64,000 nt of DNA from a virus (IMGVR_UViG_3300035092_000015:1-64000), one strand, 5' to 3'; numbered from the stretch's first letter, positions 48,155-64,000 are shown. A program made the numbers and translations. The notes: generated from the sequence alone by a model not told the origin.

Positions 48155-49072
48155 ATGCACCCACACGTGTGGAACCCCCGGCTGCACCCCCGCGACCGGA
48201 TCGGCCAGTTCACCGACACACCCGGCAGCGGGTCGTGGCTCTCCCGGGCTGCCGAGCAGGCCCGGCGCGGGTTCACCGACGCCGAGCTTGCACAGCGCGA
48301 GCAGGACGTCAACGACCTGATCGCCGGGAGCCGCCATCTGGACACCCACCGGGTGCACAAACCGAACGGACGCTGGTCCGACGAACGGGCCGCCGCTCAC
48401 CGGGAGATCTTGGACAGGGTGTGGGCGGAGAAAGCCACCCGGGTGCCGAACGAACACCGGGCGGTGATGACCGGCGGGTTGATGGGCGCCGGAAAGACCA
48501 CCGTCCTAGCCGGACACCCCGAGATCGACATGTCCGACTACCTGATGGTGTCGGCCGACGACATGAAAGAGGAGATCATCCGCCACGGTCTGGTCCCGCG
48601 CATCCCGGGCGCCGAACACCTGTCGCCGATGGAGCTGTCGGCGATGTACCACGTCGAATCGGCCTACCTGGCGGACGCACTGGCCGAACGCGCCTACGCC
48701 GAAGGGAAGAACGTGATCCTGGATGCGTCGATGGGCGACCGGACTGCCCCGGCGGCGCGGCTGGCGCGGCTGCGCGACATGGGCTACCAGGTCCGGGGGG
48801 TGTTCGTCGACATCCCGGTCGAGACGAGCCTGCAACGGGCGTCGGCCCGGTACCGGTCGGGGATGCAGCAGTGGGGCAGCGGTACCGGCCCGGGCGGGCG
48901 GACGATCCCTCCGGCGTTGATCGAGGGGCAACGCGGCCCGGGTGGGATGACGAAGAACCGGGTGGTGTTCGACCAGCTGCGCGAGGAGGGGTTGTTCGGG
49001 GCGGGGTGGGAGGTACACGACAACACCGGGTCGGCGCCGGTGCTGTTGAAGCGCGGAGGAATACAGACGTGA
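48155..49072 (+). CDS. Zeta-toxin family P-loop kinase with N-terminal HPR leader
   Basis: GGLMGAGKTT, SADDMK, HVESAYLA, NVILDAS, RASAR, GGRTIP, DN. N-terminus WNPRLHPRDRIGQF. Confidence 0.85.
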   Translation: MHPHVWNPRLHPRDRIGQFTDTPGSGSWLSRAAEQARRGFTDAELAQREQDVNDLIAGSRHLDTHRVHKPNGRWSDERAAAHREILDRVWAEKATRVPNEHRAVMTGGLMGAGKTTVLAGHPEIDMSDYLMVSADDMKEEIIRHGLVPRIPGAEHLSPMELSAMYHVESAYLADALAERAYAEGKNVILDASMGDRTAPAARLARLRDMGYQVRGVFVDIPVETSLQRASARYRSGMQQWGSGTGPGGRTIPPALIEGQRGPGGMTKNRVVFDQLREEGLFGAGWEVHDNTGSAPVLLKRGGIQT

Positions 49073-50910: not shown

Positions 50911-51447
50911 ATGACCAAACCCGCCGAAGGTAAACGGCTAAGCGGCAACCCCGTCGGGATCCGGGTCAGCCCCAACAAAGACAGCCTCATCGCCCGCCGG
51001 ATCCGCGCGGTTGAACTGCGCGTCCAAGGCATGACCCTCAACCAGGTCTCCCAGGCCACCGGCGTCAACCCACGGACCGTCCGGATCGACATCGACACGG
51101 TGTTGCGCGAGCGGGACGCGGAGACCATCCCGAAGCTGCGCGCGCTGGAAGAGGAACGGCTCGACCTGGCCGTCCGGACCGCGACCGCGATCATCGAAGC
51201 CCACCCCGGGACTGAACTGGCGTTGAAGGCCGTCGACCGGTTGATCCGGGCATCGGCCCGCCGCGCCGGGCTGCTCGGGTTGGACGCCCCGGTGGAGTTG
51301 AACATCCGCAGCACCGAGGTGACCCAGGCAGACCTCGAGTTGGACGAGCTGATCCGGGAGGCGCAGGCACGTAACGCGAACACCCGGGAACAGCTGATCG
51401 CGCAGGCAGGCGGTGGCGGTGACGACACGGCAACCCCGGTGGCCTAA
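50911..51447 (+). CDS. Terminase small subunit (HTH type)
   Basis: AVELRVQGMT HTH, LEEERLD, RRAGLLGLDAP, upstream of TerL. Confidence 0.7.
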   Translation: MTKPAEGKRLSGNPVGIRVSPNKDSLIARRIRAVELRVQGMTLNQVSQATGVNPRTVRIDIDTVLRERDAETIPKLRALEEERLDLAVRTATAIIEAHPGTELALKAVDRLIRASARRAGLLGLDAPVELNIRSTEVTQADLELDELIREAQARNANTREQLIAQAGGGGDDTATPVA

Positions 51448-51943
51448 GGGTACGCCGTGGCAGCGGCAGGGACCTGGCCCGGGACGTTGGGCTGAGCAGC
51501 TGTCGGCGCAGCTGCCCGGCCACGTCGAAGAGCCTGACTACCGGGGGGTGCACCAACCACCCGACCCCCGTGGCGCCGACACCGTGATGCGGCTGGACGA
51601 CCTCGAAGCTGACATGCCCGACGTGTACGAACACCCCGAATACTACCTGTCCAGAGAAACCGAGGGCTGGCGGGAAGCAGTCCGCGCGATGCGCGCCGTC
51701 CGGGGCCGACCCGACGCTACGATCACAATCTACCGGGCCGCACCGCCCGAGGCGGGGGCGATCAACCCCGGCGACTGGGTCAGCACCAGCCGGGCCTACG
51801 CCGCGACCCACGGTAGACACGCCCACGACCCCGCCCAGGACTGGCCGGTCATCTCGATGCAGGTTCCGGTCAGGGACGTGTACTGGGGCGGGAACGACTT
51901 CACGGAGTTCGGGTACTGGCCCGGTGTTGAGGAACGGCCGTGA
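51413..51943 (+). CDS. ADP-ribosyltransferase-fold protein with QPR leader
   Basis: IYRA...PGDWVSTSRAYA..HG...TEFGY (R-S-E-like). N-terminus QPRWPKGTP...GRWAEQLS. Confidence 0.55.
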   Translation: MAVTTRQPRWPKGTPWQRQGPGPGRWAEQLSAQLPGHVEEPDYRGVHQPPDPRGADTVMRLDDLEADMPDVYEHPEYYLSRETEGWREAVRAMRAVRGRPDATITIYRAAPPEAGAINPGDWVSTSRAYAATHGRHAHDPAQDWPVISMQVPVRDVYWGGNDFTEFGYWPGVEERP

Positions 51944-53559
51944 CTGCCGTTCTGCCTGGGCTCGAGCTTGAGCTTGACGCCCCGCCGCTGCCCTGGATCA
52001 CCGACCCGTACCACCCCGAGGTCAACGCTGAGAACTTCGACCTGTACGGGTATCTGGCCCAGTTCGACCCCAGGCTGTTCACCCACAGCCGAGGCCGGCG
52101 TGAGATCACCCGGTACGACCCGATCCTGTTCGCGATCGTTTACTTCCCGCACCACATCCGCACCGACGGGCGGATCTCATTCGCCGACCCGCATTTCCAG
52201 TGGGCCGGCGCCGCCCGACGGTGGATCGTCCCCGCCGGGCTGAAGCAAGACCGGCACGCCTACGTCGCCCCCCGCGACACCGGCAAGTCGACCTGGTGGT
52301 TCCTGCTGCTGCCGATGTGGGCCGCCGCGCACGGGCACATCAAGTTCGCCGCCGCGTTCGCCCACTCCGGCACCCAATCCGAGACCCACCTGCACGCGTT
52401 CCGCTCGGAACTGGCCGAGAACCAACGGCTGCGGCAGGACTACCCCGACCTGTGCACCCCCGCCAGGAAGCCGAACGGGAAAACCACCGCCGACAACATC
52501 CAGATGTTGCGAACCAAGGCCAACTTTGCGTTCGCTGCGCGTGGGGTGGACGCGGCGAACCTCGGGTTGAAGGAGAAAGACACCCGCCCCGACCTGATCC
52601 TGCTGGACGACGTCGAACCGGACGAAGCCTCGTACAGCCAGTACCAGATGGAGAAACGACGCGGGACCATCATCGAGGCGATCCTGCCGATGAACCTGCG
52701 CGCCCATGTCGTGCTGGTCGGGACCGTCACCATGCCCGGCAGTATCGTCCACCAGCTGGTCGCAGTCGCGAGAGGCGACACCGAGGTCGAAGCGTGGGTC
52801 GGGGAGGAGAACTTCGCCCCGCACCACGCCCTGCCGATCTGTCTACGCGACGACGGGACCGAACGAAGCATCTGGCCCGCGAAATGGCCCCTGTCGTTCC
52901 TGATCTCGATCCGCCGGACCCGATCCTACCTGAAGAACTTCGCCAACGACCCGATGGGCACCGAGGGCGGGTATTGGACGTTGGAAGATTTCACCTACGG
53001 CGAACTGGGCAACCCGACCCGCTGGTTCCTCGCGTTGGACCCGACGATCACCACGAAAACCCGCTCCGACCCGGCCGGGGTCGCGGTCATCTCCTATGCC
53101 CCCGGCTATGTGATCCCGGCCGAGTCGCCGCGCAGGCTGCCGGCGAAGGTCCCGAGCCGGTGTCTGGTGGAGTTCGCAGCGGAGGTGAAGCTGGTCGGGG
53201 AGGGTCTGCGCCGGTACCTGTTGAAGGTCTTGCAGCGGTACCCGAGGGTCAAGGCGATCATCGTCGAAGGCAACCAGGGCGGGGAGAACTGGCACGCGAT
53301 CCTGCACGATATGCCGGTCCGGGTGGTTGTCGTGTGGTCGGAGGAGAAGAAGGAGGTCCGGGCGGCGAACCTGCTGGAGCTGTACCAACACAACCCGCCG
53401 AGGGTCCTGCACCCGGAGCCTGGGGCGGTGGTGGCGCTGGAGCAGCAGATGGCGTCTTTCCCCCGGGGCAAGGACGACATGGTGGACGCGGTCGGGTCGG
53501 TGTGTCTGCGTGTCCTGGGGAAGCCGCCGAAGAAGGGCCAGACGTTCTTCCCGGTCTGA
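51940..53559 (+). CDS. terL: Terminase large subunit
   Basis: APRDTGKST Walker A, LILLDD Walker B, VGT, LALDP, VEGNQGG, DDMVDA. Confidence 0.9.
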   Translation: MTAVLPGLELELDAPPLPWITDPYHPEVNAENFDLYGYLAQFDPRLFTHSRGRREITRYDPILFAIVYFPHHIRTDGRISFADPHFQWAGAARRWIVPAGLKQDRHAYVAPRDTGKSTWWFLLLPMWAAAHGHIKFAAAFAHSGTQSETHLHAFRSELAENQRLRQDYPDLCTPARKPNGKTTADNIQMLRTKANFAFAARGVDAANLGLKEKDTRPDLILLDDVEPDEASYSQYQMEKRRGTIIEAILPMNLRAHVVLVGTVTMPGSIVHQLVAVARGDTEVEAWVGEENFAPHHALPICLRDDGTERSIWPAKWPLSFLISIRRTRSYLKNFANDPMGTEGGYWTLEDFTYGELGNPTRWFLALDPTITTKTRSDPAGVAVISYAPGYVIPAESPRRLPAKVPSRCLVEFAAEVKLVGEGLRRYLLKVLQRYPRVKAIIVEGNQGGENWHAILHDMPVRVVVVWSEEKKEVRAANLLELYQHNPPRVLHPEPGAVVALEQQMASFPRGKDDMVDAVGSVCLRVLGKPPKKGQTFFPV

Positions 53560-53594: not shown

Positions 53595-55604
53595 TTGACC
53601 AGAGCGCTCACCCCGGCCCACGCCGCCCAGCTGCAGGTCGGAACCATGACCACCGCCGGCTACGGCACCCCCGCCCTGGTCAACCCCGGCAACCCGGTGG
53701 AGATCACAGTCACCCCCGACAGCGACGGCGACGGACAGCACCTCGATACTGGCGCCACCGGGCTGTTGATGCGCAGCCTCGCCGAACTGGACGCCGCCCG
53801 CCCCGAATACGCCCTAGCGGACGAGATGTACGACGGGACCGTCGAAGAACTGCACGTATCCGACGCCATCGCCCGGCTGCTGGCACAATCCGGCGTGAAC
53901 AACATCGAAAACCTGAACTACGCGAAAGTCCCAGTCGACACCATCGCCGAGAAGCTGCAGATCCGCGCGATCACAGTCTCTGCCGGCGACCTGGCCGAGG
54001 ACGACAGCCACGACCCCGACCGGGAGATCGGCGAAGCCGACCGCGACATCGAAGACGACCCTGAGGTCGACGAGCAGAAAGAAATCAGCAGTCACGCGCA
54101 GGAGCTGCTGGACGAGATCCGCAAACGCAACCAGCTCGACGCGGAAGAACCCGAGCTGATGAAAACCTGCTCCCGCTACGGCGAAGGCTACCTGTTCGTC
54201 TGGCCGGTGGTGGCCGACCCGGAAGGCTACGAAGAAGCCTCACCGCTCGAGCCGGACCAACCCGCCCGGATCGTCGGGGTTGACATGTTCGTCAACAGCC
54301 CGTACACCACCCGGGCGTACTACGACGCGGAGAACCCGCTGCGGATGACCCACGTCCTGAAATCGTGGGAGTGGTACGACGAGGCCAACGACGCCGACCG
54401 GCTCCGCGCCACCCTGTACTTCCCCGACCGGATCGAACGTTGGGTGGTCAAGCTGCAGGGCGACCAGGCCCGCCGCGAAGACTGGGAGCACTACGTCGAG
54501 GGCGACGAGCAGTGGCCGTTGGACAACCCGACCGGCGAGATCCCGTTCTTCCACCTGCGCAACGCCCGCCCCTACGGCGTGCCCGAACACCGGGCAGCGT
54601 ACGGGCCGCAACGGTTGATCAACAAACTGGTCAGCACCCACGCGGCGACGATCGACTTCCAGGGCTGGCCGCAGCGGTACTTCCTGATCGACCCTAAAGC
54701 CGACGACCCGATGATGAACCTGCTCGACCCGGACAACCCCGAGGACGATGGGGACGACCCGGAAGGCAGCGGACGCAGCCCGTTCCGGGCCGACCCGGCA
54801 GCGGTGTGGAAGATGTTCGCCAGCGCGGTCGGGCAGTTCCAGGCCGCCGACCCGCAAGTGTTCATGGCGCCGCTGGACCGGTACATCAAGTCGATCTCCG
54901 AACTGTGCGGGATCCCGCTGGACCGGTTCGTCGGGTATTCGACCCCGCCGTCGGGGGAGTCGCGGAAGGCCGCGAACGAACCGCTGTACGAGAAGGCCGG
55001 GTCGCGGCAGGACTCGTACGGGCCGGTGATGGAGGACGCGTACGAGTTCGCGCTGCAGCTGCTGGGTGTGACCGATGTGACGGTCGACGTGAAATGGAAG
55101 CCGCTGCAGGTCGCGGTTGGGCTCGAGGATTGGAACATCATCCAGGCGAAGATCGGCAACGGTGTCCCGGTCCGGCAGGCGTTGATCGAAGCCGGCTACC
55201 CGGAGGACGAGGTCGACATCTGGCTGGTGGATGAGACCGGCGCGGACCTGGTCCGGCGGGTGGCGTTGTTGAACTCGATCGGGACCGCGATCCAGGCGAT
55301 GTCGGCCGGTGTCGCGGTCGGGATGGTCTCTCCGGAGCAGGCCGGCGACATCATCGCCCGGATCATTGGGGCGGTTGGGGAGAACCTGCCGCGTCTGGCG
55401 AAGCCGGTCGCGTTGCATCCGCAGATGCAGCAGATGGCGGACCAGATGCAGAAGGACGCCCGGGGTCAGCAGGTGGCTGAGCATATCGCGTCCGCGCCGC
55501 CGCAGCCGCAGTTCGACCCGGAGGGTAAGCCTATCCCGCCGCCGCCTGACCGGCCGTTGCCGCCGATGCCGCCCCCGCCGCCGCCAGTAAGGGTCGGACG
55601 ATGA
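53595..55604 (+). CDS. Portal protein (SPP1 gp6-like)
   Basis: Follows TerL. NYAKVPVD..AEKL, NPTGEIPFFH, YG.PEH, PQRY, PSGES, Pro-rich tail. Confidence 0.85.
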   Translation: MTRALTPAHAAQLQVGTMTTAGYGTPALVNPGNPVEITVTPDSDGDGQHLDTGATGLLMRSLAELDAARPEYALADEMYDGTVEELHVSDAIARLLAQSGVNNIENLNYAKVPVDTIAEKLQIRAITVSAGDLAEDDSHDPDREIGEADRDIEDDPEVDEQKEISSHAQELLDEIRKRNQLDAEEPELMKTCSRYGEGYLFVWPVVADPEGYEEASPLEPDQPARIVGVDMFVNSPYTTRAYYDAENPLRMTHVLKSWEWYDEANDADRLRATLYFPDRIERWVVKLQGDQARREDWEHYVEGDEQWPLDNPTGEIPFFHLRNARPYGVPEHRAAYGPQRLINKLVSTHAATIDFQGWPQRYFLIDPKADDPMMNLLDPDNPEDDGDDPEGSGRSPFRADPAAVWKMFASAVGQFQAADPQVFMAPLDRYIKSISELCGIPLDRFVGYSTPPSGESRKAANEPLYEKAGSRQDSYGPVMEDAYEFALQLLGVTDVTVDVKWKPLQVAVGLEDWNIIQAKIGNGVPVRQALIEAGYPEDEVDIWLVDETGADLVRRVALLNSIGTAIQAMSAGVAVGMVSPEQAGDIIARIIGAVGENLPRLAKPVALHPQMQQMADQMQKDARGQQVAEHIASAPPQPQFDPEGKPIPPPPDRPLPPMPPPPPPVRVGR

Positions 55605-56074
55605 CCTGGGGACCAAGCGACGAGCAGAAACACCCTCGCGACCGGGCTGGGCGGTGGGCCGAGAAGCTGTCCGATCTGATCGGCCAGCGCCGTTACCGTG
55701 GCATGCTCGCTGACTTGGCGGCGATGTCCGCAGACACCCCGGAGCACCGACAACAGGGGGCGGCGGCCCGCCGGGAGACGGCTGAGTGGTTGCGTGGTCT
55801 TCTGTCCGACCCGGAGTCCGGGCACGCTACGATCCCGGTCGGTGTTGGTGTCCTGCTCGACTTGGCTGACGTGATCGCGGGTGGGGAGTGGCAGGTCGCC
55901 CCGGCGTGGGGGTCGGGTGAGCCGGGCGGGGTGATCCGCCGGGTGTACACCGGCGGGCCGGGCGCCGGGTCGCTGCGGATTGAGACCGACGGGGGGAATC
56001 TGGATTTCCCGATCCCCGAGCCGTGGTCACGGGGCGAAGAGATCCGCATCCAACGCGCCTTCCGTCGGGGGTGA
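55601..56074 (+). CDS. HPR-leader protein 1
   Basis: MTWGPSDEQKHPRDRAGRWAEKLSDLI. Confidence 0.65.
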   Translation: MTWGPSDEQKHPRDRAGRWAEKLSDLIGQRRYRGMLADLAAMSADTPEHRQQGAAARRETAEWLRGLLSDPESGHATIPVGVGVLLDLADVIAGGEWQVAPAWGSGEPGGVIRRVYTGGPGAGSLRIETDGGNLDFPIPEPWSRGEEIRIQRAFRRG

Positions 56075-56077
56075 CCT

Positions 56078-56923
56078 GTGACGTGGGGACCGGAGGAGGA
56101 GCGGGCACACCCGCGCGACGCTGAAGGCCGTTGGACTGACCGGCTCGATGCCCGGCTGCGTCGGCTGCCGGATTTTCCGGCCGATGGGACGCGGATGCAA
56201 GCATCCGAGATGGCGTACCGTAAACGCTGGCTGGACGAACACGGTCGGTACAGCGGGCTGGAGATCTGGCACCCGAACCAGGGCACTTGGGCGGACGCAG
56301 CCGACGCCTTCCCAAAGGGCCGCTCCTACGGGCCAGCTGACGAGGACGACCCGATGAAGGGTATCAAGCTGGACGACCCGTACGGGATCGGGATGGAGGC
56401 GCATTGGACCCCCTCCGCTCCGATCCACGTCCGCAGGAAACTCGAGCCGGTCCGCCGGGTCGACCAGACGCGGGAGAAACCCAACCCGAGGATGGAGTAC
56501 CTGCACGAGGAGACCGGCGTGTGGGTGCCAGGGGCTAGGCTTGACGTTGACCCTGACACGGGGATGTGGGATGCGTTCGGCAGCCCGTTCGGCTCGGGGA
56601 AGGTTGCCGAACGGCCGCACTACCCGCCGACGAACTTCGACAAGCAGACCGTCGCCTACGGGTTCACCCCGGAGGATCACGCGTTCAACGGGATGATCCG
56701 AACCATCCACCTGCAGGACGTGGTCGACCAGCCGTCTTACCTGCAGGGCGGGTACCAGATGCTCGGGCAGGACGGGCAGTGGCACACCCTGGAAGAGGCG
56801 TACCAGGTCTATCCGGAGCTTGAAGACTCGGATCTGTTCGAGTTGATCGCGGGGGATCTGCATTTCCCGGAGATCGAAGCGTCGTCGGAGTTGACGGTCC
56901 GCCGCACCCCGATGGACTACTGA
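56078..56923 (+). CDS. HPR-leader protein 2 with repeated beta domains
   Basis: MTWGPEEERAHPRDAEGRWTDRL. Confidence 0.7.
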   Translation: MTWGPEEERAHPRDAEGRWTDRLDARLRRLPDFPADGTRMQASEMAYRKRWLDEHGRYSGLEIWHPNQGTWADAADAFPKGRSYGPADEDDPMKGIKLDDPYGIGMEAHWTPSAPIHVRRKLEPVRRVDQTREKPNPRMEYLHEETGVWVPGARLDVDPDTGMWDAFGSPFGSGKVAERPHYPPTNFDKQTVAYGFTPEDHAFNGMIRTIHLQDVVDQPSYLQGGYQMLGQDGQWHTLEEAYQVYPELEDSDLFELIAGDLHFPEIEASSELTVRRTPMDY

Positions 56924-56934
56924 CAGGAGGAGAA

Positions 56935-57108
56935 ATGGCAACCTACGGAGCACCCCGGCAGGTGCCGGGCCGTAACAGTACCGGCCGCAGCCGCCAGACG
57001 AGCAGCGCGAAGCGTAAGGGGATGAAGGCGCTGCCGCCGCGACGGACCGGCGGGTCGAAGATGACCCGCGACGGGTCGAACCCGATGGCCCACGGCGGGA
57101 ACTGCTAA
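56935..57108 (+). CDS. 57-aa basic peptide (not in ORF track)
   Basis: AGGAGG RBS, MATYGAPRQ...KRKGMK...NPMAHGGNC. Confidence 0.65.
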   Translation: MATYGAPRQVPGRNSTGRSRQTSSAKRKGMKALPPRRTGGSKMTRDGSNPMAHGGNC

Positions 57109-57114
57109 GGAGAG

Positions 57115-57969
57115 ATGGCGATGCGCCGTTGGAACGAGAAGGACCACCCCCGCAACCCCGAGGACGGTAGGTTCCGGGACAAGATCGGCGGCGGCGGGTG
57201 GGCGCGGCGTATCTCCGACGCGATCGGGCGACGCCGAGGCGAGCGTGACCAACGCCGCGAAGACGCCCAGTACGAACGCGACCGGCGCGAACACATGCGC
57301 ACCCACCCTGGCGCGACTGCCCGGCAGGCGGCGATCCATGCGTCGATGCAGCAGTCGTTCCGCCGGGAGGAGCAGGCCAGGGCGGCGGGCGACACCGCGC
57401 GGGCGGACAAGCTGAAGGCCCAGGGGTTCGATTTCATGCAGTCGTACCACCAGCCTGACCCGGGTGGGCCGTCGCGGCTGTCCCGGATGGAGGACGGCAC
57501 CGGTTCGCGTGACCCCAGGCAGGTCGGTGGGCGTCCGATCGAGATCAACGGCCAGACGGTCGGGTACGAATCGACCGGGCCTGGGATCCGGGGCGTCAAC
57601 CAGGACGAGGAGGGGCTGCCCCGGGGTCGGCTCGAGCGGGAGTTCGCCGATGTGGTTAAGGCCGACGAGGCCGCCCACGTCGGGGCGTTGAACGAGTCGA
57701 AACACCAGATCATCACAACCTACGTCGATGACCTGTTCGAGGTCGCGGAGGACATCCAGAACGGGGTCTTCCAGCATGATTTCGAGGAGGACCCGGATCT
57801 GGAGGATCTGGTGAATGCGATGGCGGATGTGGTGATGGACCGGCCGGACAACTGGGGGGCGATGCAGTCGGCGGCGGAGCGGCTGCGCAAGTACATCATC
57901 CGCAGCGGCTATGCGAATGTGGCGAAGCTGCCGCGACGCCCGCCGGAGTCGACCTGGAGGAGGGACTAG
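57115..57969 (+). CDS. HPR-leader protein 3
   Basis: RRWNEKDHPRNPEDGRF...WARRISDAIG. Confidence 0.7.
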   Translation: MAMRRWNEKDHPRNPEDGRFRDKIGGGGWARRISDAIGRRRGERDQRREDAQYERDRREHMRTHPGATARQAAIHASMQQSFRREEQARAAGDTARADKLKAQGFDFMQSYHQPDPGGPSRLSRMEDGTGSRDPRQVGGRPIEINGQTVGYESTGPGIRGVNQDEEGLPRGRLEREFADVVKADEAAHVGALNESKHQIITTYVDDLFEVAEDIQNGVFQHDFEEDPDLEDLVNAMADVVMDRPDNWGAMQSAAERLRKYIIRSGYANVAKLPRRPPESTWRRD

Positions 57970-57972
57970 TTC

Positions 57973-58350
57973 GTGTCGTGGGGCCCGGACGACGAGCGCA
58001 ACCATCCACGCGACCCTGCGGGGCGGTGGGCGGAGAAACTGTCTGCCAGGATGATCCATCCGTTCGACGATTTGGACTACCCGGAACCCCGCCCACATGG
58101 GAACCGGTCGTTTGCTGGGGCGAAGATGGTCCCGGTGTCGGCGATGTTGCAACGGCTGGAGCTGTGGAGTGGGCAGGTCGATGTGTACGACCAGCGCAGC
58201 GACCGGTGGGTGAACCTGGGCGAGGTCCGGCCGGGCCGGGGTACCGACCGGGTGCAGTTTCGGGGCCGGGGTCCGGGTCCGGCGTTGTTCTCCCGGAATC
58301 GGACGGATAGCGTGATTGTCCGGAGGGCTACCGGACAAGCAGGGGCGTGA
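57973..58350 (+). CDS. HPR-leader protein 4
   Basis: MSWGPDDERNHPRDPAGRWAEKLS. Confidence 0.7.
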   Translation: MSWGPDDERNHPRDPAGRWAEKLSARMIHPFDDLDYPEPRPHGNRSFAGAKMVPVSAMLQRLELWSGQVDVYDQRSDRWVNLGEVRPGRGTDRVQFRGRGPGPALFSRNRTDSVIVRRATGQAGA

Positions 58351-58376
58351 CACATACGGTGTCACTCTGGTAGAAT
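58347..58376 (+). promoter_or_regulatory. Promoter with perfect operator palindrome
   Basis: GTGACA-N18-TAGAAT, with GTGACAC-ATACG-GTGTCAC. Confidence 0.7.
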
Positions 58377-58387
58377 GGGAGTATGCA

Positions 58388-58570
58388 ATGGCAGTCACCG
58401 TCAAACCCCTCGGGCGGGTCGGTAAGTACACCGCCCGAGGCCACCACGCCCACACCGCGATCGGCTACCTCAACAGCGGCGCCCCCCTCGCCCACGGCGG
58501 GAACTGGCGCGGCGGGGCAGCCGCACCCCGGGCCCGCCGTGGTGGCGGACGTCGACGCAGCAGCTACTGA
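58388..58570 (+). CDS. 60-aa Arg/Gly-rich basic peptide
   Basis: MAVTVKP...APLAHGGNW...RARRGGGRRRSSY, directly after promoter. Confidence 0.6.
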   Translation: MAVTVKPLGRVGKYTARGHHAHTAIGYLNSGAPLAHGGNWRGGAAAPRARRGGGRRRSSY

Positions 58571-58585
58571 CGCCAGGAGTCACGC

Positions 58586-59587
58586 GTGAGCCGCTGGAAC
58601 GAACGCGAACACCCCCGATGGCCCGCCGGTACACCAACCTCCGGGAACATCGGGGGTGGCCGGTTCGCCGGAGCACCCCGACCCGGTGTCCCATCGTCGG
58701 GCGGACACGCGTGGGCCGACCAACTGTCCGGGCAGATCGGACGGCGGATGCTCGACCTGGGCCGCGACCGAGGCGACGGCACCCGGACCGTCACCACCGA
58801 GCAGATGCTCGCCGCCCGCGCCTCGATCCGCCCCGGGATGTACGACTACCAGGACCGGTGGACCGGCGAGTGGCGTCCGCTGCACGGGGTTGACCCGCAC
58901 GGGGTCGCCGCAGCGCACGGGATGGCGCTGTCCAGCAGCCCAACCTCCGCACAGATCTACTGGGATCGGGTCCGGATCAAACCAGCCGGCCAGCCGGTCC
59001 AACCCCATGCCGAACCGACCCCCCGGATCGGCATCCCGCAGGGCGACGGGACCTACCTGATCACCGGGCAGGAGCTTGCCCAACACGGCGCCGAGCTTGA
59101 AGGCCGGATCGACTACATCCCGCGAGGGGGCGCCGGGGACTCGCGGCTCGAGCCGCGCGAGGTGGTGTTCATAGAGCCCGGCAAAGGCAGCGGGGTGTTC
59201 TTGGGCCAGTTCGGGTCCACCAGCCTGCTGCGCGGCGACAGCGAGGTGCTGATCAGCTACCACGGCGAACCGACCGACGACCAGCAGTTCTTCGAGATGC
59301 GGATGGCCACCGGGCTCGAGAGTGACGAGGACCCGGAGGATCTGTTCACCCACGACCGGCGTTACATCGGCAACATCGAGGTGCAGGACCCGCAGACCGG
59401 CCAGTGGGGTGTGTACCGGGGCGGGGAGTACGAGGAGGACGAGCTGACCGGGCAGGACGTGATCCACATCTGGGTCGGGGAGCCCGGCGGCGAGTCGAAG
59501 ATCGTCCTGCCGGACAACCCTCGTGGCGGGTATGGGCGGATCCGGATCCGGCCGATCTCTGGGCAGGCCGGGGGGGGTCCGCGATGA
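58586..59587 (+). CDS. HPR-leader protein 5
   Basis: MSRWNEREHPRWPAGTP...GGGRF...WADQLSGQIG. Confidence 0.7.
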   Translation: MSRWNEREHPRWPAGTPTSGNIGGGRFAGAPRPGVPSSGGHAWADQLSGQIGRRMLDLGRDRGDGTRTVTTEQMLAARASIRPGMYDYQDRWTGEWRPLHGVDPHGVAAAHGMALSSSPTSAQIYWDRVRIKPAGQPVQPHAEPTPRIGIPQGDGTYLITGQELAQHGAELEGRIDYIPRGGAGDSRLEPREVVFIEPGKGSGVFLGQFGSTSLLRGDSEVLISYHGEPTDDQQFFEMRMATGLESDEDPEDLFTHDRRYIGNIEVQDPQTGQWGVYRGGEYEEDELTGQDVIHIWVGEPGGESKIVLPDNPRGGYGRIRIRPISGQAGGGPR

Positions 59588-60456
59588 AGTGGGACGAGCG
59601 GAAACACCCCCGCGACCCGCGCGATGGGCAGTTCACCGAGTCGTGGGCCACGGCTATCTCCGACCGGATCGCCGGGGCGGTCGGCAGAGCAACGTCCAGC
59701 CCGAACCTGCCCCGGCTGCAGCCCGGCGGCGGGCTGCCCGCTGACACCCCTGCCGACGGGCGGGTCGACAAGATCGACGACCTGGTCGACGCTACCGCCC
59801 ACCTGGACGAAGGCGAGGGGTTCGGCAGGTTCGACGGCATCGAGTTCTACGTGGGAGATGTCGGCTGGGTCAACGCCGACGAGGCACGGGTGTTGCGCCT
59901 CGGCCTTGACGAGGCCCATCGCTCCCACATCATCCACCTGGACAACTCGGAGATGACCATCCCTGGCGGGCTGGGTGGCGCGGTCGACGTGAGTCTCGAG
60001 GGCAAAGTCCGGTGGCGCCACGCCGACATCCGGCCGGTGGACACCAGCCAACCGCCGAACCCCGGCTGGGAATACCTGGTCGACTTTTACGACGAGTCGG
60101 AGTGGATCGACGCCCCGCAGATCGATGCGGTCGATGGGGAGTGGGTGTACGACGCGGAGATCCTGACCGCTGTCCTCGGGGGCCGGCCGATGATCGACCC
60201 GCCCGAGATGGAAGGTCTGCACACCCACCCGCAGAAGACCACCGTCGGCGCCCGGTTGTTGGACGACCTGCCCGCCTGGACCGGCGGCGGGTACCAGATC
60301 TACAACCCCGACACCGGGACCTGGCACACGATCGAAGAGATCTACCAGGACGACCCGGATGAGGAGGAGATCGAACTGATCGCCGACGGGTACCACCTGC
60401 CGCACCTGGACACTTCGGACGAGATCGTCGTCCGTCCGATACCCGTAGGGGACTGA
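59584..60456 (+). CDS. HPR-leader protein 6
   Basis: MKWDERKHPRDPRDGQFTESWATAISDRI. Confidence 0.7.
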   Translation: MKWDERKHPRDPRDGQFTESWATAISDRIAGAVGRATSSPNLPRLQPGGGLPADTPADGRVDKIDDLVDATAHLDEGEGFGRFDGIEFYVGDVGWVNADEARVLRLGLDEAHRSHIIHLDNSEMTIPGGLGGAVDVSLEGKVRWRHADIRPVDTSQPPNPGWEYLVDFYDESEWIDAPQIDAVDGEWVYDAEILTAVLGGRPMIDPPEMEGLHTHPQKTTVGARLLDDLPAWTGGGYQIYNPDTGTWHTIEEIYQDDPDEEEIELIADGYHLPHLDTSDEIVVRPIPVGD

Positions 60457-60458
60457 CA

Positions 60459-61205
60459 ATGGCCCGCGATTGGCGTGAACAGGACCACCCACGCAACCCA
60501 GCCGACGGCCAGTTCGTCGACAAGGCCGGCGCCGGACGGTGGGCCAGCCGAATCTCCGACGCGATCGGGCAGATGCGAGGCGAGCCCGGCCGCAGCCGCC
60601 GCCAGCGCACAGCCGGTGCCGCCAACGCTGACCCCGCCCCGGGTGAAGTCCGGGCAGCGCTGCACGGGCTGGTGCGCGACTCGGACCTGGCAGCCCTGAA
60701 CGACGACATGATCCGGGAGGCGATCGAGCAGGCCAAAGTGGATGTCGGAACGAACCCGCTGCGGGGCGGGATGACGTTCGATCGGTTTGTCGTGGACCAG
60801 ATGCAGCAGTACCTGTCCAATCAACACCCGGACGAGATCTGGCCGCATCTGGCGGAGGTCACCGCCCGCCGCGAGGCTGTGCTCGAGGCGTTCAACCCTG
60901 AGGCGGCGTTCCGCAGCAAATACGCCGCGCTGCTGACCGAACTGGTCCCCGGCATCAGCCAAGCCAGCATCGACGACGCCGCCCAGGACCACCTCAAGTA
61001 CGCCAGGGCGGGGCTGCAAGCCCCGATCACTGATGAAGATCTGGACTGGGGTCTCGCCTCCTACATCTCGCTGCTGGACGGCGACTCGATCATGAACGTC
61101 TACGACGCGCTGATGGAGTTGCAACAGCGGACCGGCCGGAGCTTCCCGAACACGATCGACGCCATCGACGAGATGGGGCTGCTCGACGACGAGGAGGATT
61201 ACTGA
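60459..61205 (+). CDS. HPR-leader protein 7 (helical, acidic)
   Basis: MARDWREQDHPRNPADGQF...RWASRISDAIG. Confidence 0.7.
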   Translation: MARDWREQDHPRNPADGQFVDKAGAGRWASRISDAIGQMRGEPGRSRRQRTAGAANADPAPGEVRAALHGLVRDSDLAALNDDMIREAIEQAKVDVGTNPLRGGMTFDRFVVDQMQQYLSNQHPDEIWPHLAEVTARREAVLEAFNPEAAFRSKYAALLTELVPGISQASIDDAAQDHLKYARAGLQAPITDEDLDWGLASYISLLDGDSIMNVYDALMELQQRTGRSFPNTIDAIDEMGLLDDEEDY

Positions 61206-61429
61206 TGGTGTACAAGGCGAACAAGACCTTCCGACGCCAGGTAGGCCGGGGCGTCCGGGCGTTGGGCCGCGCCATCGCCGCCGGGATCCGGCTGACCCGG
61301 CAGAAACGGCTCCAACGGATCCGCACCGGCGAACTGCAAGGATCGGTCCCGCGCCGGCACAGCCGCGCCCGGGGCCGTGTCACAGCCACCCGCCACGGGA
61401 TCCGCACCGCCCGCCGCAAACGCCGCTAG
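61205..61429 (+). CDS. 74-aa protamine-like Arg-rich peptide
   Basis: GAGGAGG RBS, TGATG coupling, very Arg-rich with a single acidic residue. Confidence 0.6.
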   Translation: MVYKANKTFRRQVGRGVRALGRAIAAGIRLTRQKRLQRIRTGELQGSVPRRHSRARGRVTATRHGIRTARRKRR

Positions 61430-61437
61430 GAGTCGAG

Positions 61438-64000
61438 ATGGCACGACGCCGGTACGGGATGCACCCCGGGGATGACGACCAACCCCGCTGGCCCGAAGGC
61501 ACCCCGGTCCGCCCGGATGGGCACGGGCCGGGTGGTGGGCGTTTCCGTGGCACCGGCGATGTCGGCGGGGCTGATGTTGGCGACCTCGTGTCCGGGCTGC
61601 AGGGGGCGTCTAGCCGGCCGTGGTACGAGACCGCAGCGGGGCAGATCGCGCAACAGCGCGGCGGTGGGCACCCGAGGGTGGCGTACAACCTGGCTGTGAT
61701 CAACGCCGCCCAGGCGCAGTACAACGAGAACCGGGGCGACGGGTTCCACGACGAACAGCTGCCGCAGCTGATCGGGCAGTACAACGTCGCGGAGGCGCAG
61801 GGCAACCCGGCTGGGCAGGATGTCGCGGTCGACCAACTCCGGTTGTGGATCGACTCGCATTACCCGGAGCAGTGGGCTGGTGCTCTGCCGGCGCGGGTGG
61901 AGGCCAGGGAGGCGCCTCGGGCGGCGGACCAGGACCAACGTAACAGCGCTGCCTTGGATCTGGCCCGGACAGCCCAGGCGAATATCGAGGTGAACACCGG
62001 CGACCCGGATGATGCTCTGGCGATCCGGATCGAAGCACTCGAGCGGCACCTCGGGCGGACTGGGCATCGGGTGGAGGCGGATCGGGAGGCAGCTGCTCTG
62101 CGCCGATATATGGACCACGAGATGGACCAGGAGGCGGCGTCGCCGCCGGGCACTGCGGTGATGCATGCCCGGCTCGAGGCGTCTCGACCGTCGGGCGAGG
62201 GTCAAGAGCTACGGGCGAGCGAGATCGCTCTGCAGTACATGTCGGGCAGGCCGCTCGAGTTGAACCTGCTCGACGGGCGCGGCTGGGGCCGGATCACCGA
62301 TTACAGTGAAGAGAGCGGCGGGACCGAGCACCGGTTCGAGCTACAGTACGAAGACGGCGGCGGCGACGAGATCTTCATGGGGTCGACCGATCGGTTGATC
62401 GCCCGACGTGTACCCGGCAGCCTCCCCGATCAGGCCCAGCAGCCGGAGATGGACCACGACCGGAACCTGCGACTGGTCAACGCGATGGAAACCCCCGAAG
62501 GTGGCGAGGTCACCGCTGCTGAACTGCTTGAGCTGGTCGGCAACGGGCACCGGCTGGAGGTCCTGGGCCGGCACGGGTGGGATCGAGTTGAGACGGTCGA
62601 CGTTTCCGGCGAGGGCGACCATTTCATCTACTTGGAGAACGACCCGGAGCCGATCTCGATGTCGCCGGAGGGTCGGGTGGCGATCCGATTCCCCCAGACA
62701 CCCGAGCCGGCCACGGCCAGTACCGGTCTCAGTCTCGGCGGGAACCCTCTCACCGATCGCGACGCGTGGAACCGGCTCGTCGTACACCTGGCCCGCCAGC
62801 ACAACGACAACCGCGCACGCGACGGGCTGGGCCGCGACGAGGTCATGGACCAGATGGTCGCCGACATCGAACACCCCGACGTCACCGACGTGCAGGGGGT
62901 GGCGGACAGCAACGCGGAGGTCCTGCGGCAACGGCTGGAGCGGATGTACCGGGCATCGATCATCGACCCACCAACCCGCCGCGCCGAGCCGCAGTTCACC
63001 ATCCCCGAGACTGGGGTCATCTCCGCCGCCGAGGACGTGAACCGCGTCCGCCGGGTGACGGGCCAGGCGGAGGACGCCCACCTCGCCGATATGCTGCGGG
63101 TGGTGCGGGGTGAACTCCCGGGCGACCCTCACGGCATGGTGGCGGCGATGCGGCAGCGGCTGCAGCAGATCCACGGCGTGACCGTTCCTGGCGGCGACGA
63201 TCTGGAGGCCCTGAACGACCGCGACCTGCGCGACCTCGGCATCGAATACGACATCGCCGTCCCCGCACCGCCGCTGGCCCCCGACTACCGCGCCGACCTG
63301 ATCGCCCGCATCCGCTACCGGCAACAGGCCGACGCCAACCGTGGAGTCTCACGGGCTGCCGCCCATAGCAACGTCAACTGGGCCGACACCCACATCAGCC
63401 ACCAACGCCCCAGGTTCTACCGCCAAGCGGTCGACGACTACCAGATGCCGTTGCAGATCCGCGACGCGCAGGGCCAATGGCGCACCGTCACCTCGATCGG
63501 CTACCCCACCAACGGGCAGTACGAGATCACCCACGACGGACCAACCGGCCACACGTTCGTCCCTGAGAACCACACGATCACCGCCCGGTTCGGGTCGGAC
63601 CGCAGTGGCACCACGAACCAGGACCGGCAGCGGTTCAACCAGCAGGTCGCGGTGGTCGCCGAGTCGATGCTCGAACAGGTGGCTCCGGAGGACCGGGCGG
63701 ACGACGAAGGCTACACCCGGCTGCGCGCCGCACTCGACAGCTACAACGACACCACCTCCAACCCGAACGACCAGGAGTCGATCGACTCGGCGGTGGACGA
63801 TTTGGTGAACGAACTGGCCGACTGGGATATCTACTTCGACGTCCCGCCGTACCAGGACTACGACAGCGGCGGGCCCAGCTACCTGCCGCCGAGCCGGTAC
63901 AACGGCGGGGTCTACACCGGGGACGACGAAGAAGACGACTACTACGACCAGCCGGCAATCCCCGAGATCTACGGCAACACGCTCGCCGCCGCGATAAGCC
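61438..64000 (+). CDS. Large acidic multidomain QPR-leader protein (>850 aa, runs off window, absent from ORF track)
   Basis: AGGAG RBS. MARRRYGMHPGDDDQPRWPEGTP...GGGRFRG, with the frame appearing open to the window end. Confidence 0.75.
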   Translation, partial: MARRRYGMHPGDDDQPRWPEGTPVRPDGHGPGGGRFRGTGDVGGADVGDLVSGLQGASSRPWYETAAGQIAQQRGGGHPRVAYNLAVINAAQAQYNENRGDGFHDEQLPQLIGQYNVAEAQGNPAGQDVAVDQLRLWIDSHYPEQWAGALPARVEAREAPRAADQDQRNSAALDLARTAQANIEVNTGDPDDALAIRIEALERHLGRTGHRVEADREAAALRRYMDHEMDQEAASPPGTAVMHARLEASRPSGEGQELRASEIALQYMSGRPLELNLLDGRGWGRITDYSEESGGTEHRFELQYEDGGGDEIFMGSTDRLIARRVPGSLPDQAQQPEMDHDRNLRLVNAMETPEGGEVTAAELLELVGNGHRLEVLGRHGWDRVETVDVSGEGDHFIYLENDPEPISMSPEGRVAIRFPQTPEPATASTGLSLGGNPLTDRDAWNRLVVHLARQHNDNRARDGLGRDEVMDQMVADIEHPDVTDVQGVADSNAEVLRQRLERMYRASIIDPPTRRAEPQFTIPETGVISAAEDVNRVRRVTGQAEDAHLADMLRVVRGELPGDPHGMVAAMRQRLQQIHGVTVPGGDDLEALNDRDLRDLGIEYDIAVPAPPLAPDYRADLIARIRYRQQADANRGVSRAAAHSNVNWADTHISHQRPRFYRQAVDDYQMPLQIRDAQGQWRTVTSIGYPTNGQYEITHDGPTGHTFVPENHTITARFGSDRSGTTNQDRQRFNQQVAVVAESMLEQVAPEDRADDEGYTRLRAALDSYNDTTSNPNDQESIDSAVDDLVNELADWDIYFDVPPYQDYDSGGPSYLPPSRYNGGVYTGDDEEDDYYDQPAIPEIYGNTLAAAIS

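Follow-up and report, generated by a model that had tools for sequence, protein, structure and literature searches.

A two-part N-terminal leader shared by sixteen stand-alone genes in the head module of an uncultured phage: candidate head-loaded cargo akin to polyvalent proteins

Proteins injected together with phage DNA govern the first minutes of infection through anti-restriction, host shut-off and evasion of defences, and are hard to recognise by sequence. Here we describe a set of candidates for this role in IMGVR_UViG_3300035092_000015, a virus record of 80,875 bp in IMG/VR that carries direct terminal repeats and is rated 100% complete, of which bases 1-64000 (the window) were the stretch first analysed: sixteen stand-alone genes among the terminase, portal and scaffold genes, whose products begin with variants of one short, two-part leader containing the tripeptide HPR. 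Several described systems bring proteins into phage heads. In T4, cargo carrying the capsid-targeting sequence (CTS) loads onto the scaffolding core, and the prohead protease (gp21-type) trims the CTS. SPP1 gp7, of the MuF family, binds the portal protein gp6; as for the Dar proteins of phage P1, minor head proteins enter the procapsid near the portal and leave with the DNA. We know of no leader motif shared by SPP1 gp7 or the Dar proteins, and their likeness to the genes described here is one of logic only.

The internal proteins of T4, as reviewed in PMC3012670, are diverse and fast-evolving, share a short N-terminal CTS that is portable to foreign proteins, and enter the host with the DNA, where they counter its defences. 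The phage polyvalent and MuF-fused proteins are listed with Zeta kinase, ParB-like and metallopeptidase modules in the main text of Iyer et al. (2017; PMC5512222), which also mentions P1 DdrB and Alt. The polymorphic toxins of temperate phages, in which MuF serves as the head-associated carrier of variable toxic or enzymatic C-terminal domains, are treated in the main text of Jamet et al. (2017; PMC5576092). Neither of the latter two main texts contains the string 'HPR', and a literature search whose scope excluded subscription journals and supplements found no published description of the leader motif.

Virion-delivered effectors, polyvalent proteins, MuF- or portal-fused proteins and the CTS-bearing proteins of T4 are known; what is new is an array in which the polyprotein appears to have been broken up into 16 separate genes, each headed by a two-part leader. 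With the polyvalent proteins, as presented in the main text of Iyer et al., the locus shares the portal/terminase genomic slot and the Zeta-type kinase, ParB-like and metallopeptidase-like modules, and the present analysis finds the leader motif recurring between the modules of ART-PolyVal, MuF, GNAT and NUDIX proteins. It differs from them in having one gene per module, no covalent link to portal or MuF, and an extra helical element: where polyvalent polypeptides carry 2-15 effector domains, each product here carries a single leader and no more than one domain of recognised family, and no ART domain was found in the tagged proteins, although the portal/terminase context and the Zeta kinase, ParB-like and metallopeptidase-type repertoire are both in place. 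The parallel with the MuF toxins lies in the closeness of the leaders to MuF; however, the MuF-like protein of this phage, of 354 amino acids (aa), does not combine an N-terminal MuF with a C-terminal toxin, showing neither leader nor added domain in a Pfam scan, and the variable proteins are separate genes. With the T4 system the locus shares a set of diverse proteins having only a short N-terminal address in common; it differs in that the leader is unrelated in sequence to the CTS, that no prohead protease family was matched among 20 late-region proteins scanned, and that the head module is SPP1-like, with head loading as a proposal.

We consider, with moderate confidence, that the 16 genes are the split-up form of a portal- or MuF-fused multi-effector polyvalent protein and that their products are cargo loaded into the head and injected. 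Cargo status is probable because the same peptide elsewhere heads modules fused to portal or MuF, and a polyprotein split into stand-alone genes is suggested by the recurrence of the motif inside giant polyvalent proteins and after portal domains. The 16 aligned N-termini give the consensus MxxWxExxHPRxPxxGRFxxxxWAxxLSxxxG, in which R13 and G18 never vary and at least 90% of the sequences have P12 and W29. Part 1 of the leader, hereafter also the tag, reads aromatic-x-E-x-x-HPR-x(2-17)-G-R/K/Q-F/W and has two subtypes: HPR(D/N)(P)xxG(R/Q)(F/W), and (H/Q)PRWPxGTP...GGRF with a longer Pro/Gly loop. Part 2, W-A-x-x-I/L-S-x-x-I/L-G, is usual but not universal after part 1; its W, I and I are spaced i, i+4 and i+8, which would place them on one face of a short amphipathic helix, if helical.

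The first-pass annotation had recognised ten tagged genes, namely eight open reading frames (ORFs) after the portal and those starting at 48155 and 51413. All ten are real, lying on the + strand at the starts assigned to them with the motif within the first ~15-25 residues, but the total is 16, six further leader genes being situated beyond the window at genome positions 65189, 66202, 67116, 67895, 69923 and 70687. Its view of the leader as reusable is borne out by the presence of the same unit on unrelated bodies. All 16 genes are on the + strand, which is that of the head genes, and within 48-72 kb, with the leader always N-terminal; together they amount to 5270 codons, ~15.8 kb or 19.5% of the genome, and GGAG-like sites precede most of their starts by eye. 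When the family is defined as Aromatic-x-E-x-x-(H/Q)PR-x(2-17)-G-(R/K/Q/E)-(F/W/Y) placed where a protein starts or two modules meet, 15 of the 16 match and the sixteenth is a QQRWP variant. The same variant falls outside a six-frame regular expression applied to the whole genome, whose 19 matches comprise the other 15 leader N-termini and four places elsewhere in other frames. A leader profile run against all six-frame ORFs of at least 40 aa retrieved exactly 16 ORFs (E <= 1.2e-5; next match E = 0.078) and nothing in the remaining ~56 kb, which shows only the absence of further copies since the profile was trained on those same 16 sequences.

Part 1 extends far beyond this phage. A strict back-translated pattern (W-x-E-x-x-HPRD-x-x-G-x-F) occurs in at least 118 IMG/VR viral stretches, against ~0.3 expected by chance on our own estimate, and in at least 120 stretches of bacterial or archaeal genomes from many phyla; a looser pattern marks 93 places in 49 viral records, and its reversal none. 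By position, 37 tags in the viral loci lie no more than 40 residues from the first possible start, 93 are internal and four are at the locus edge, the figures for bacterial-genome loci being 71 near the start, 45 internal and two at the edge. The leader profile matched 445 of 1.84 billion cluster representatives at E <= 1e-3, 28 of them at E <= 1e-10 (a word-index protein search with it returned 12 proteins among 8000 scored candidates, a set too small to be useful). Among the best 150 of the 445, 98 are at least 600 aa long, reaching 7334 aa, and hold up to 16 copies of the motif core per protein by regular expression (median 3), spaced at a median of 260 aa (interquartile range 194-390) with a Gly/Ser-rich stretch typically coming after each. 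In the remaining 52, all below 600 aa, the match begins at residue 1-8 in 47 and further in for five, and most show part 2 as well. Seven multi-tag proteins that were scanned contain ART-PolyVal (three), Phage_Mu_F, GNAT, NUDIX, ADPrib_exo_Tox and DUF3626 domains. By their domain content these seven qualify as polyvalent proteins as Iyer et al. (2017) use the term, and part 1, judged from these searches, is a widespread, mainly internal module header of such proteins, while part 2 looks special to the stand-alone actinophage forms. The earlier capsid-cargo proposal is partly supported: the reusable leader, the tie to head genes and the same motif on portal- and MuF-fused modules speak for it, but the HPR half is not private to stand-alone proteins.

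Some observations accompany this survey. P0151 (1076 aa), which has precomputed GNAT families, carries the subtype (H/Q)PR(W/Y/H)PxGTPV...GGRF internally at no fewer than three places; because it does so, both leader subtypes appear to act as module headers. In Melainabacteria/Gastranaerophilales loci the sequence M-x-W-N-E-x-x-HPRD-x-x-G-K-F-T-(F/Y)-K-N-G-G opens many small free-standing proteins; the repeated (A/E)DILY(G/P) motifs that come next may be a lineage-specific counterpart of part 2. In loci L112 and L116 a few long ORFs end 15-26 residues after the tag, which may reflect split or frameshifted anchor-payload genes.

The immediate surroundings of the tag bear on what part 1 does. 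Each polyprotein conserves the 8-14 residues leading into its tags, and these residues differ between proteins; stand-alone proteins start only 1-5 residues ahead of the aromatic residue, which in many lies 2-6 residues after Met. Both patterns fit a tag that needs a free N-terminus. It is possible, and we put this forward tentatively, that the HPR header is a general portable address: proteins with it at a free N-terminus would enter the procapsid at a portal-proximal receptor and be ejected ahead of or with the DNA, the helix of the actinophage forms replacing the covalent anchor and so turning a single giant polyprotein into a plug-and-play set of 16 cargo genes that evolve separately. Somewhat less probable in our estimation is that part 1 is a free-N-terminus header for exit or post-delivery action, loading being achieved by fusion elsewhere and here by part 2 or the bodies. 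This would account for the retention of the tag even on modules already fused to portal or MuF and for its place at the very N-terminus of the stand-alone proteins, and the conserved pre-tag residues would fit a cut just before the tag that exposes it. Such cleavage is conjectural, however; the tag region, by reading the sequences, is net acidic with no obvious DNA- or membrane-binding chemistry, and the stand-alone proteins would still require an entry route into the head.

A further explanation, which we regard as very unlikely, makes the header a functionless relic of a processing signal of the ancestral polyprotein, a site for a head protease or an HExxH metalloprotease. Processing of polyvalent proteins by metallopeptidases has been proposed (Iyer et al., 2017; PMC5512222). 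HExxH is present in 38 of the 98 long proteins with tags (a raw count), and the tagged gene at 70687 encodes HEFGH with a weak ATLF match and has tagged homologues in four more distant portal relatives. A relic should have decayed, yet the 16 copies here and those of 47 of the 52 short proteins elsewhere keep the motif near residue 1, where a stand-alone protein has nothing upstream to cut away.

The first-pass annotation had held that a motif distributed without regard to head genes would undo its proposal; the distribution is in fact not independent of them. Phage_Mu_F was found at E <= 1e-3 in 30 of the 49 motif-bearing viral records (18 of the 30 above the curated cut-off; L033 and L042 are left out of this count), the nearest tag lies no more than 5 kb from MuF in 27 of these 30 at a median distance of 1.6 kb, and 61 of the 62 tags in the MuF-bearing viral records are on the MuF strand. 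In the present genome the tagged genes sit between the terminase region and the scaffold. A Pfam scan of 92 motif-bearing ORFs from bacterial genomes, covering ORFs of 150 aa or more with seven ORFs above 1000 aa left out, gave 14 matches to portal families (Phage_portal_3 in eight, Phage_portal in six), along with PBECR1 (eight), PBECR3 (two), Phage_lysozyme (five), LPD3 (four), LPD13 (one), Gln_amidase (four), Peptidase_M23 (three), DUF2213 (two), MuF (one) and ART families, and none to relaxase or type IV secretion families. A short tag query had no match in plasmids, and a single Streptomyces plasmid locus, where a payload relative lies beside conjugation-type genes, has no tag in 30.6 kb.

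These associations weigh on another explanation, that the tagged proteins are late cytoplasmic, non-virion proteins whose leader binds a common factor such as an assembly chaperone, a regulatory protein or machinery for degradation or activation. Packaging is conjectural, two tagged genes sit beside the terminase genes and not beside the portal, and the kinases and the ParB-like protein could serve replication or packaging. Against this, portal and MuF are virion components, and modules joined to them in frame start with the same motif; the tags are on the MuF strand a few kb from MuF, and the payload repertoire agrees with that of the predicted injected polyvalent proteins; we accordingly take it to be unlikely.

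The head module reads, in order, leader-Zeta kinase, helix-turn-helix (HTH) protein, leader-ParB-C, large terminase (TerL), portal, eight leader genes, four leader kinases, MuF-like, two leader genes, scaffold, major capsid protein, connectors and tail. By slot, 12 tagged genes lie between portal and MuF, two between MuF and scaffold, and two upstream of the large terminase. The features are as follows.

48155..49072, + strand: HPR-type leader with a Zeta-toxin-like P-loop kinase, 305 aa (Pfam Zeta_toxin 9.7e-15, AAA_33 3.3e-12)
51413..51943, + strand: QPRWP-type leader with a ParB-C-like domain, 176 aa (phrog_2579 'ParB C-terminal domain' 2.6e-33)
51940..53559, + strand: large terminase subunit (65-68% nucleotide matches to annotated Streptomyces and Microbacterium phage terminase genes)
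53595..55604, + strand: portal, SPP1 gp6-like (phrog_104 2.1e-46, Pfam SPP1_portal 1.6e-8, 150 homologues)
55601..56074, + strand: leader protein 1, 157 aa (MTWGP..HPRD..GRW..LSDLIG), body without recognised family
56078..56923, + strand: leader protein 2, 281 aa, acidic
57115..57969, + strand: leader protein 3, 284 aa, full two-part leader
57973..58350, + strand: leader protein 4, 125 aa, basic body
58586..59587, + strand: leader protein 5, 333 aa, HPRWPxGTP...GGRF subtype followed by WADQLSGQIG
59584..60456, + strand: leader protein 6, 290 aa, body isoelectric point (pI) 4.1, start overlapping the stop of the 58586 gene
60459..61205, + strand: leader protein 7, 248 aa, acidic
61438..64680 (the window ends at 64000), + strand: leader protein 8, QPRWP subtype, 1080 aa
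Genome 65189, 66202, 67116 and 67895, spanning 65189-68770, + strand: four tagged PI3/PI4-kinase-like proteins
Genome 68767-69831: MuF-like protein, 354 aa (phrog_2662, phrog_115; five distant homologues carry PF04233)
Genome 69923, + strand: tagged protein sharing the C-terminal module
Genome 70687, + strand: tagged HExxH protein (HEFGH; weak ATLF match, E = 0.01-0.03)
Downstream of 70687: scaffold (Pfam Phage_scaffold 9.9e-12)

Stop and start codons overlap between the portal and the 55601 gene, between 58586 and 59584, among the four kinase genes, and between the last kinase and MuF; by this arrangement the leader array is part of the head operon. Upstream, the start of the 51413 gene overlaps the end of the HTH-bearing ORF, which reads by eye as the small terminase, and its stop overlaps the start of the large terminase. 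The genome has a G+C content of ~67%. Its terminase and portal genes show 64-68% DNA identity to annotated Streptomyces and Microbacterium phage genes, and for this resemblance the host is probably an actinomycete; the source looks like an uncultured soil-type phage of high-GC bacteria, a siphovirus with an SPP1-like head module.

Three small ORFs of very basic predicted sequence occupy the ~190-235-nt gaps between cargo genes (56935-57108, about 58385-58570 and 61205-61429), two of them with GGAG-like sites upstream, and a 24-nt element is common to two gaps (57081-57104 versus 58483-58506, 88% identical). The gaps at 56924, 58351 and 61206 gave no convincing common structure, and promoter- or terminator-like sites in them were not above those of shuffled sequences. 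A 187-aa minus-strand ORF (genome 73518-74081), between the scaffold and capsid genes, has an Ig-like (Big_2-type) look by eye; PHROGs gave no match for it, and no + strand frame in that stretch looks coding.

The bodies behind the leaders are, as the first-pass annotation had remarked, mostly acidic (pI 4.1-5.4 in seven of the eight array proteins), the exception being the basic 57973 product. Its placing of enzyme domains on the two tagged genes outside the array also stands: Zeta_toxin in 48155 is solid by its Pfam match, and the predicted ParB-C-like domain of 51413 takes its label from PHROGs only. The four kinase-like proteins match Pfam PI3_PI4_kinase at 2e-5 to 0.08, below the curated cut-off. 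In the alignment of this family K92, D184, R185, N189 and H217 are invariant and D216 is present in at least 90%, so that the D-R-H-x-x-N loop, a downstream I-D-H as DFG equivalent and an upstream Lys are all found at the sequence level, and the family profile matches type II PI 4-kinase chains in PDB (E = 8e-4). The seven acidic array bodies have no family in Pfam, PHROGs or NCBIfam; NCBIfam gave no match for eight proteins, PDB sequence searches of three bodies gave none, and a protein atlas search had no usable match for the 290-aa acidic 59584 product. The 1080-aa 61438 protein has one header and, as its only Pfam match, a weak VipB below the cut-off. A by-eye reading of its C-terminus as GNAT is unsupported because its likeness to P0151 is confined to the tags and does not extend to the body. 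A C-terminal module of ~55-60 residues recurs in several tagged proteins of the non-enzymatic kind, at 56700-56923, at 60230-60456, in several places within 61438-64000 and at genome 70500-70684; through it BLAST ties together 56078, 59584 and 69923 (56078 versus 59584: 229 aa, 5e-11).

The array is variable even between close relatives. Of 80 portal-relative loci 61 were analysed, short loci and those with edge-cut portals having been left out by eye. Close relatives (portal identity of at least 49%, at least 2.3 kb of downstream DNA) carry 3-9 tagged ORFs, and the short locus L250 carries one; in the 15 rows with the first tag less than 200 nt from the portal stop, the distance from stop to tag is 18-156 nt, and the many relatives with the MuF signature ~765 nt after the portal have 0-1 tags. 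Three contigs (L248, L249 and L008) have portals 96-98% identical to this one and differing sets of tagged genes. A 55601 homologue occurs only in L249 (90% identity), with none seen in the available parts of L248 and L008; 57973 has no homologue among the tagged ORFs of the relatives; 58586 has an 85% identical copy in L008 only, where 51413 also has a copy, 98% identical; 59584 has homologues in all three contigs at 66-86% identity; and 61438 likewise at 56-83%, with the middles rearranged. Homologues of 57115, 59584, 60459 and 61438 keep the leader while their middles are exchanged or deleted: that of 57115 in L008, for instance, retains leader and C-terminal half around a different middle. 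Among more distant relatives the most widely shared cargo is the tagged HExxH protein and the kinases.

Such mosaicism behind conserved leaders, with short DNA repeats of 64-88% identity connecting the leader-coding stretches, might be explained by the leader being a DNA-level recombination signal for cassette exchange, the peptide being incidental. The leader DNA copies, however, are only 64-86% identical to one another (73-79% between 60459 and 57115) with the key residues kept, the same peptide is written with different codons across phyla (CAC CCG CGC GAC versus CAT CCT AGA GAT), and the motif is always in frame at protein starts or module boundaries; we hold this explanation to be extremely unlikely.

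Cultured phages offer few counterparts. Streptomyces phage KimJongPhill, a cultured relative, runs compactly from portal through minor head protein and scaffold to capsid, with no tag. In Gordonia phage Phendrix, a cultured phage of 121 kb, gp66 (L326, 13938-18377), directly after the portal, is a 1479-aa hypothetical protein with no Pfam family and a tag at residues ~20-37, and GodonK has the same protein as gp67. A tblastn search of cultured phages with three whole tagged proteins gave no match, and short-leader queries gave weak ones (E = 0.1-9) to the portal of Xanthomonas phage PhiXhv-5, an HI1409-family protein of a Helicobacter phage, Phendrix and GodonK. We found no virion proteomics in the literature for the cultured phages with tag matches.

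As a candidate receptor for the leader we considered the portal tail. Residues ~600-669 of the portal form a proline-rich C-terminal tail; portals before tag arrays have Pro-rich tails, some followed by Ala/Lys-rich basic tails, and portals directly before MuF end soon after the crown helices. In raw counts the Pro-rich tail (at least eight Pro in the last 70 residues, a criterion that misclassifies L277, L281 and L286) is found in 13/16 loci with an array versus 4/42 without. The tree of 58 portals contains only three independent contrasts on supported branches (sign test p = 1), so that the correlation is inseparable from shared ancestry and was rejected as evidence for the tail as receptor. 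L271 and L297 were dropped from these rows, as were L301 and L303 (less than 3 kb downstream and no tag); separate alignments comprised 53 portal and 48 MuF-like sequences.

Under the reading we favour, that of a dissolved polyvalent protein whose parts are head cargo, the leader genes would be expressed together with the head genes, and the leader would direct its protein, by non-covalent contact, to the assembling procapsid at a site near the portal (on portal, MuF or scaffold), this contact replacing the covalent link of the fused forms. The leader would stay on the protein, its retention being probable because no head protease was found among the 20 late-region proteins scanned. On ejection the proteins would pass out through the portal together with the DNA, to act early in infection of the next host. 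The payloads that can be identified are kinases, a ParB-like protein and a zinc-protease-like protein. As a working hypothesis for the division of roles, part 2 may supply the docking that covalent fusion gives elsewhere, and part 1 may serve a function common to all modules; part 2 suggests itself as the docking element because it is seen on stand-alone actinophage-type proteins, while internal tags precede Gly/Ser linkers.

Several points weigh against this picture. Virion presence and portal-proximal docking of the tagged proteins are both proposals made from sequence, and 'effector' is a presumption for most bodies, as most have no recognised family. The fused modules are already covalently anchored, so a pure docking signal in part 1 would be redundant there, which argues for an additional or different role in ejection, post-delivery action or processing. 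The load-then-trim logic of T4 does not apply here, given that the late-region proteins scanned include no head protease. The tagged 48155 and 51413 genes sit upstream of the terminase and not after the portal, and the correlation with the portal tail identifies no receptor.

As a marker, the header would offer a simple rule for spotting injected modules, whether fused or free-standing, in uncultured phages, and it would be a candidate for use as a tag with which to load phage heads with foreign proteins. The present genome is an unusually clean case, with 16 tagged genes, an array that varies among near-identical relatives and no head protease found; the last two properties make loading by the leader alone directly testable. 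If the header is indeed a general portable address, it would be the second programmable tag for protein packaging, with a much wider spread than the CTS of T4, and would provide a sequence rule for finding injected effectors in metagenomes.

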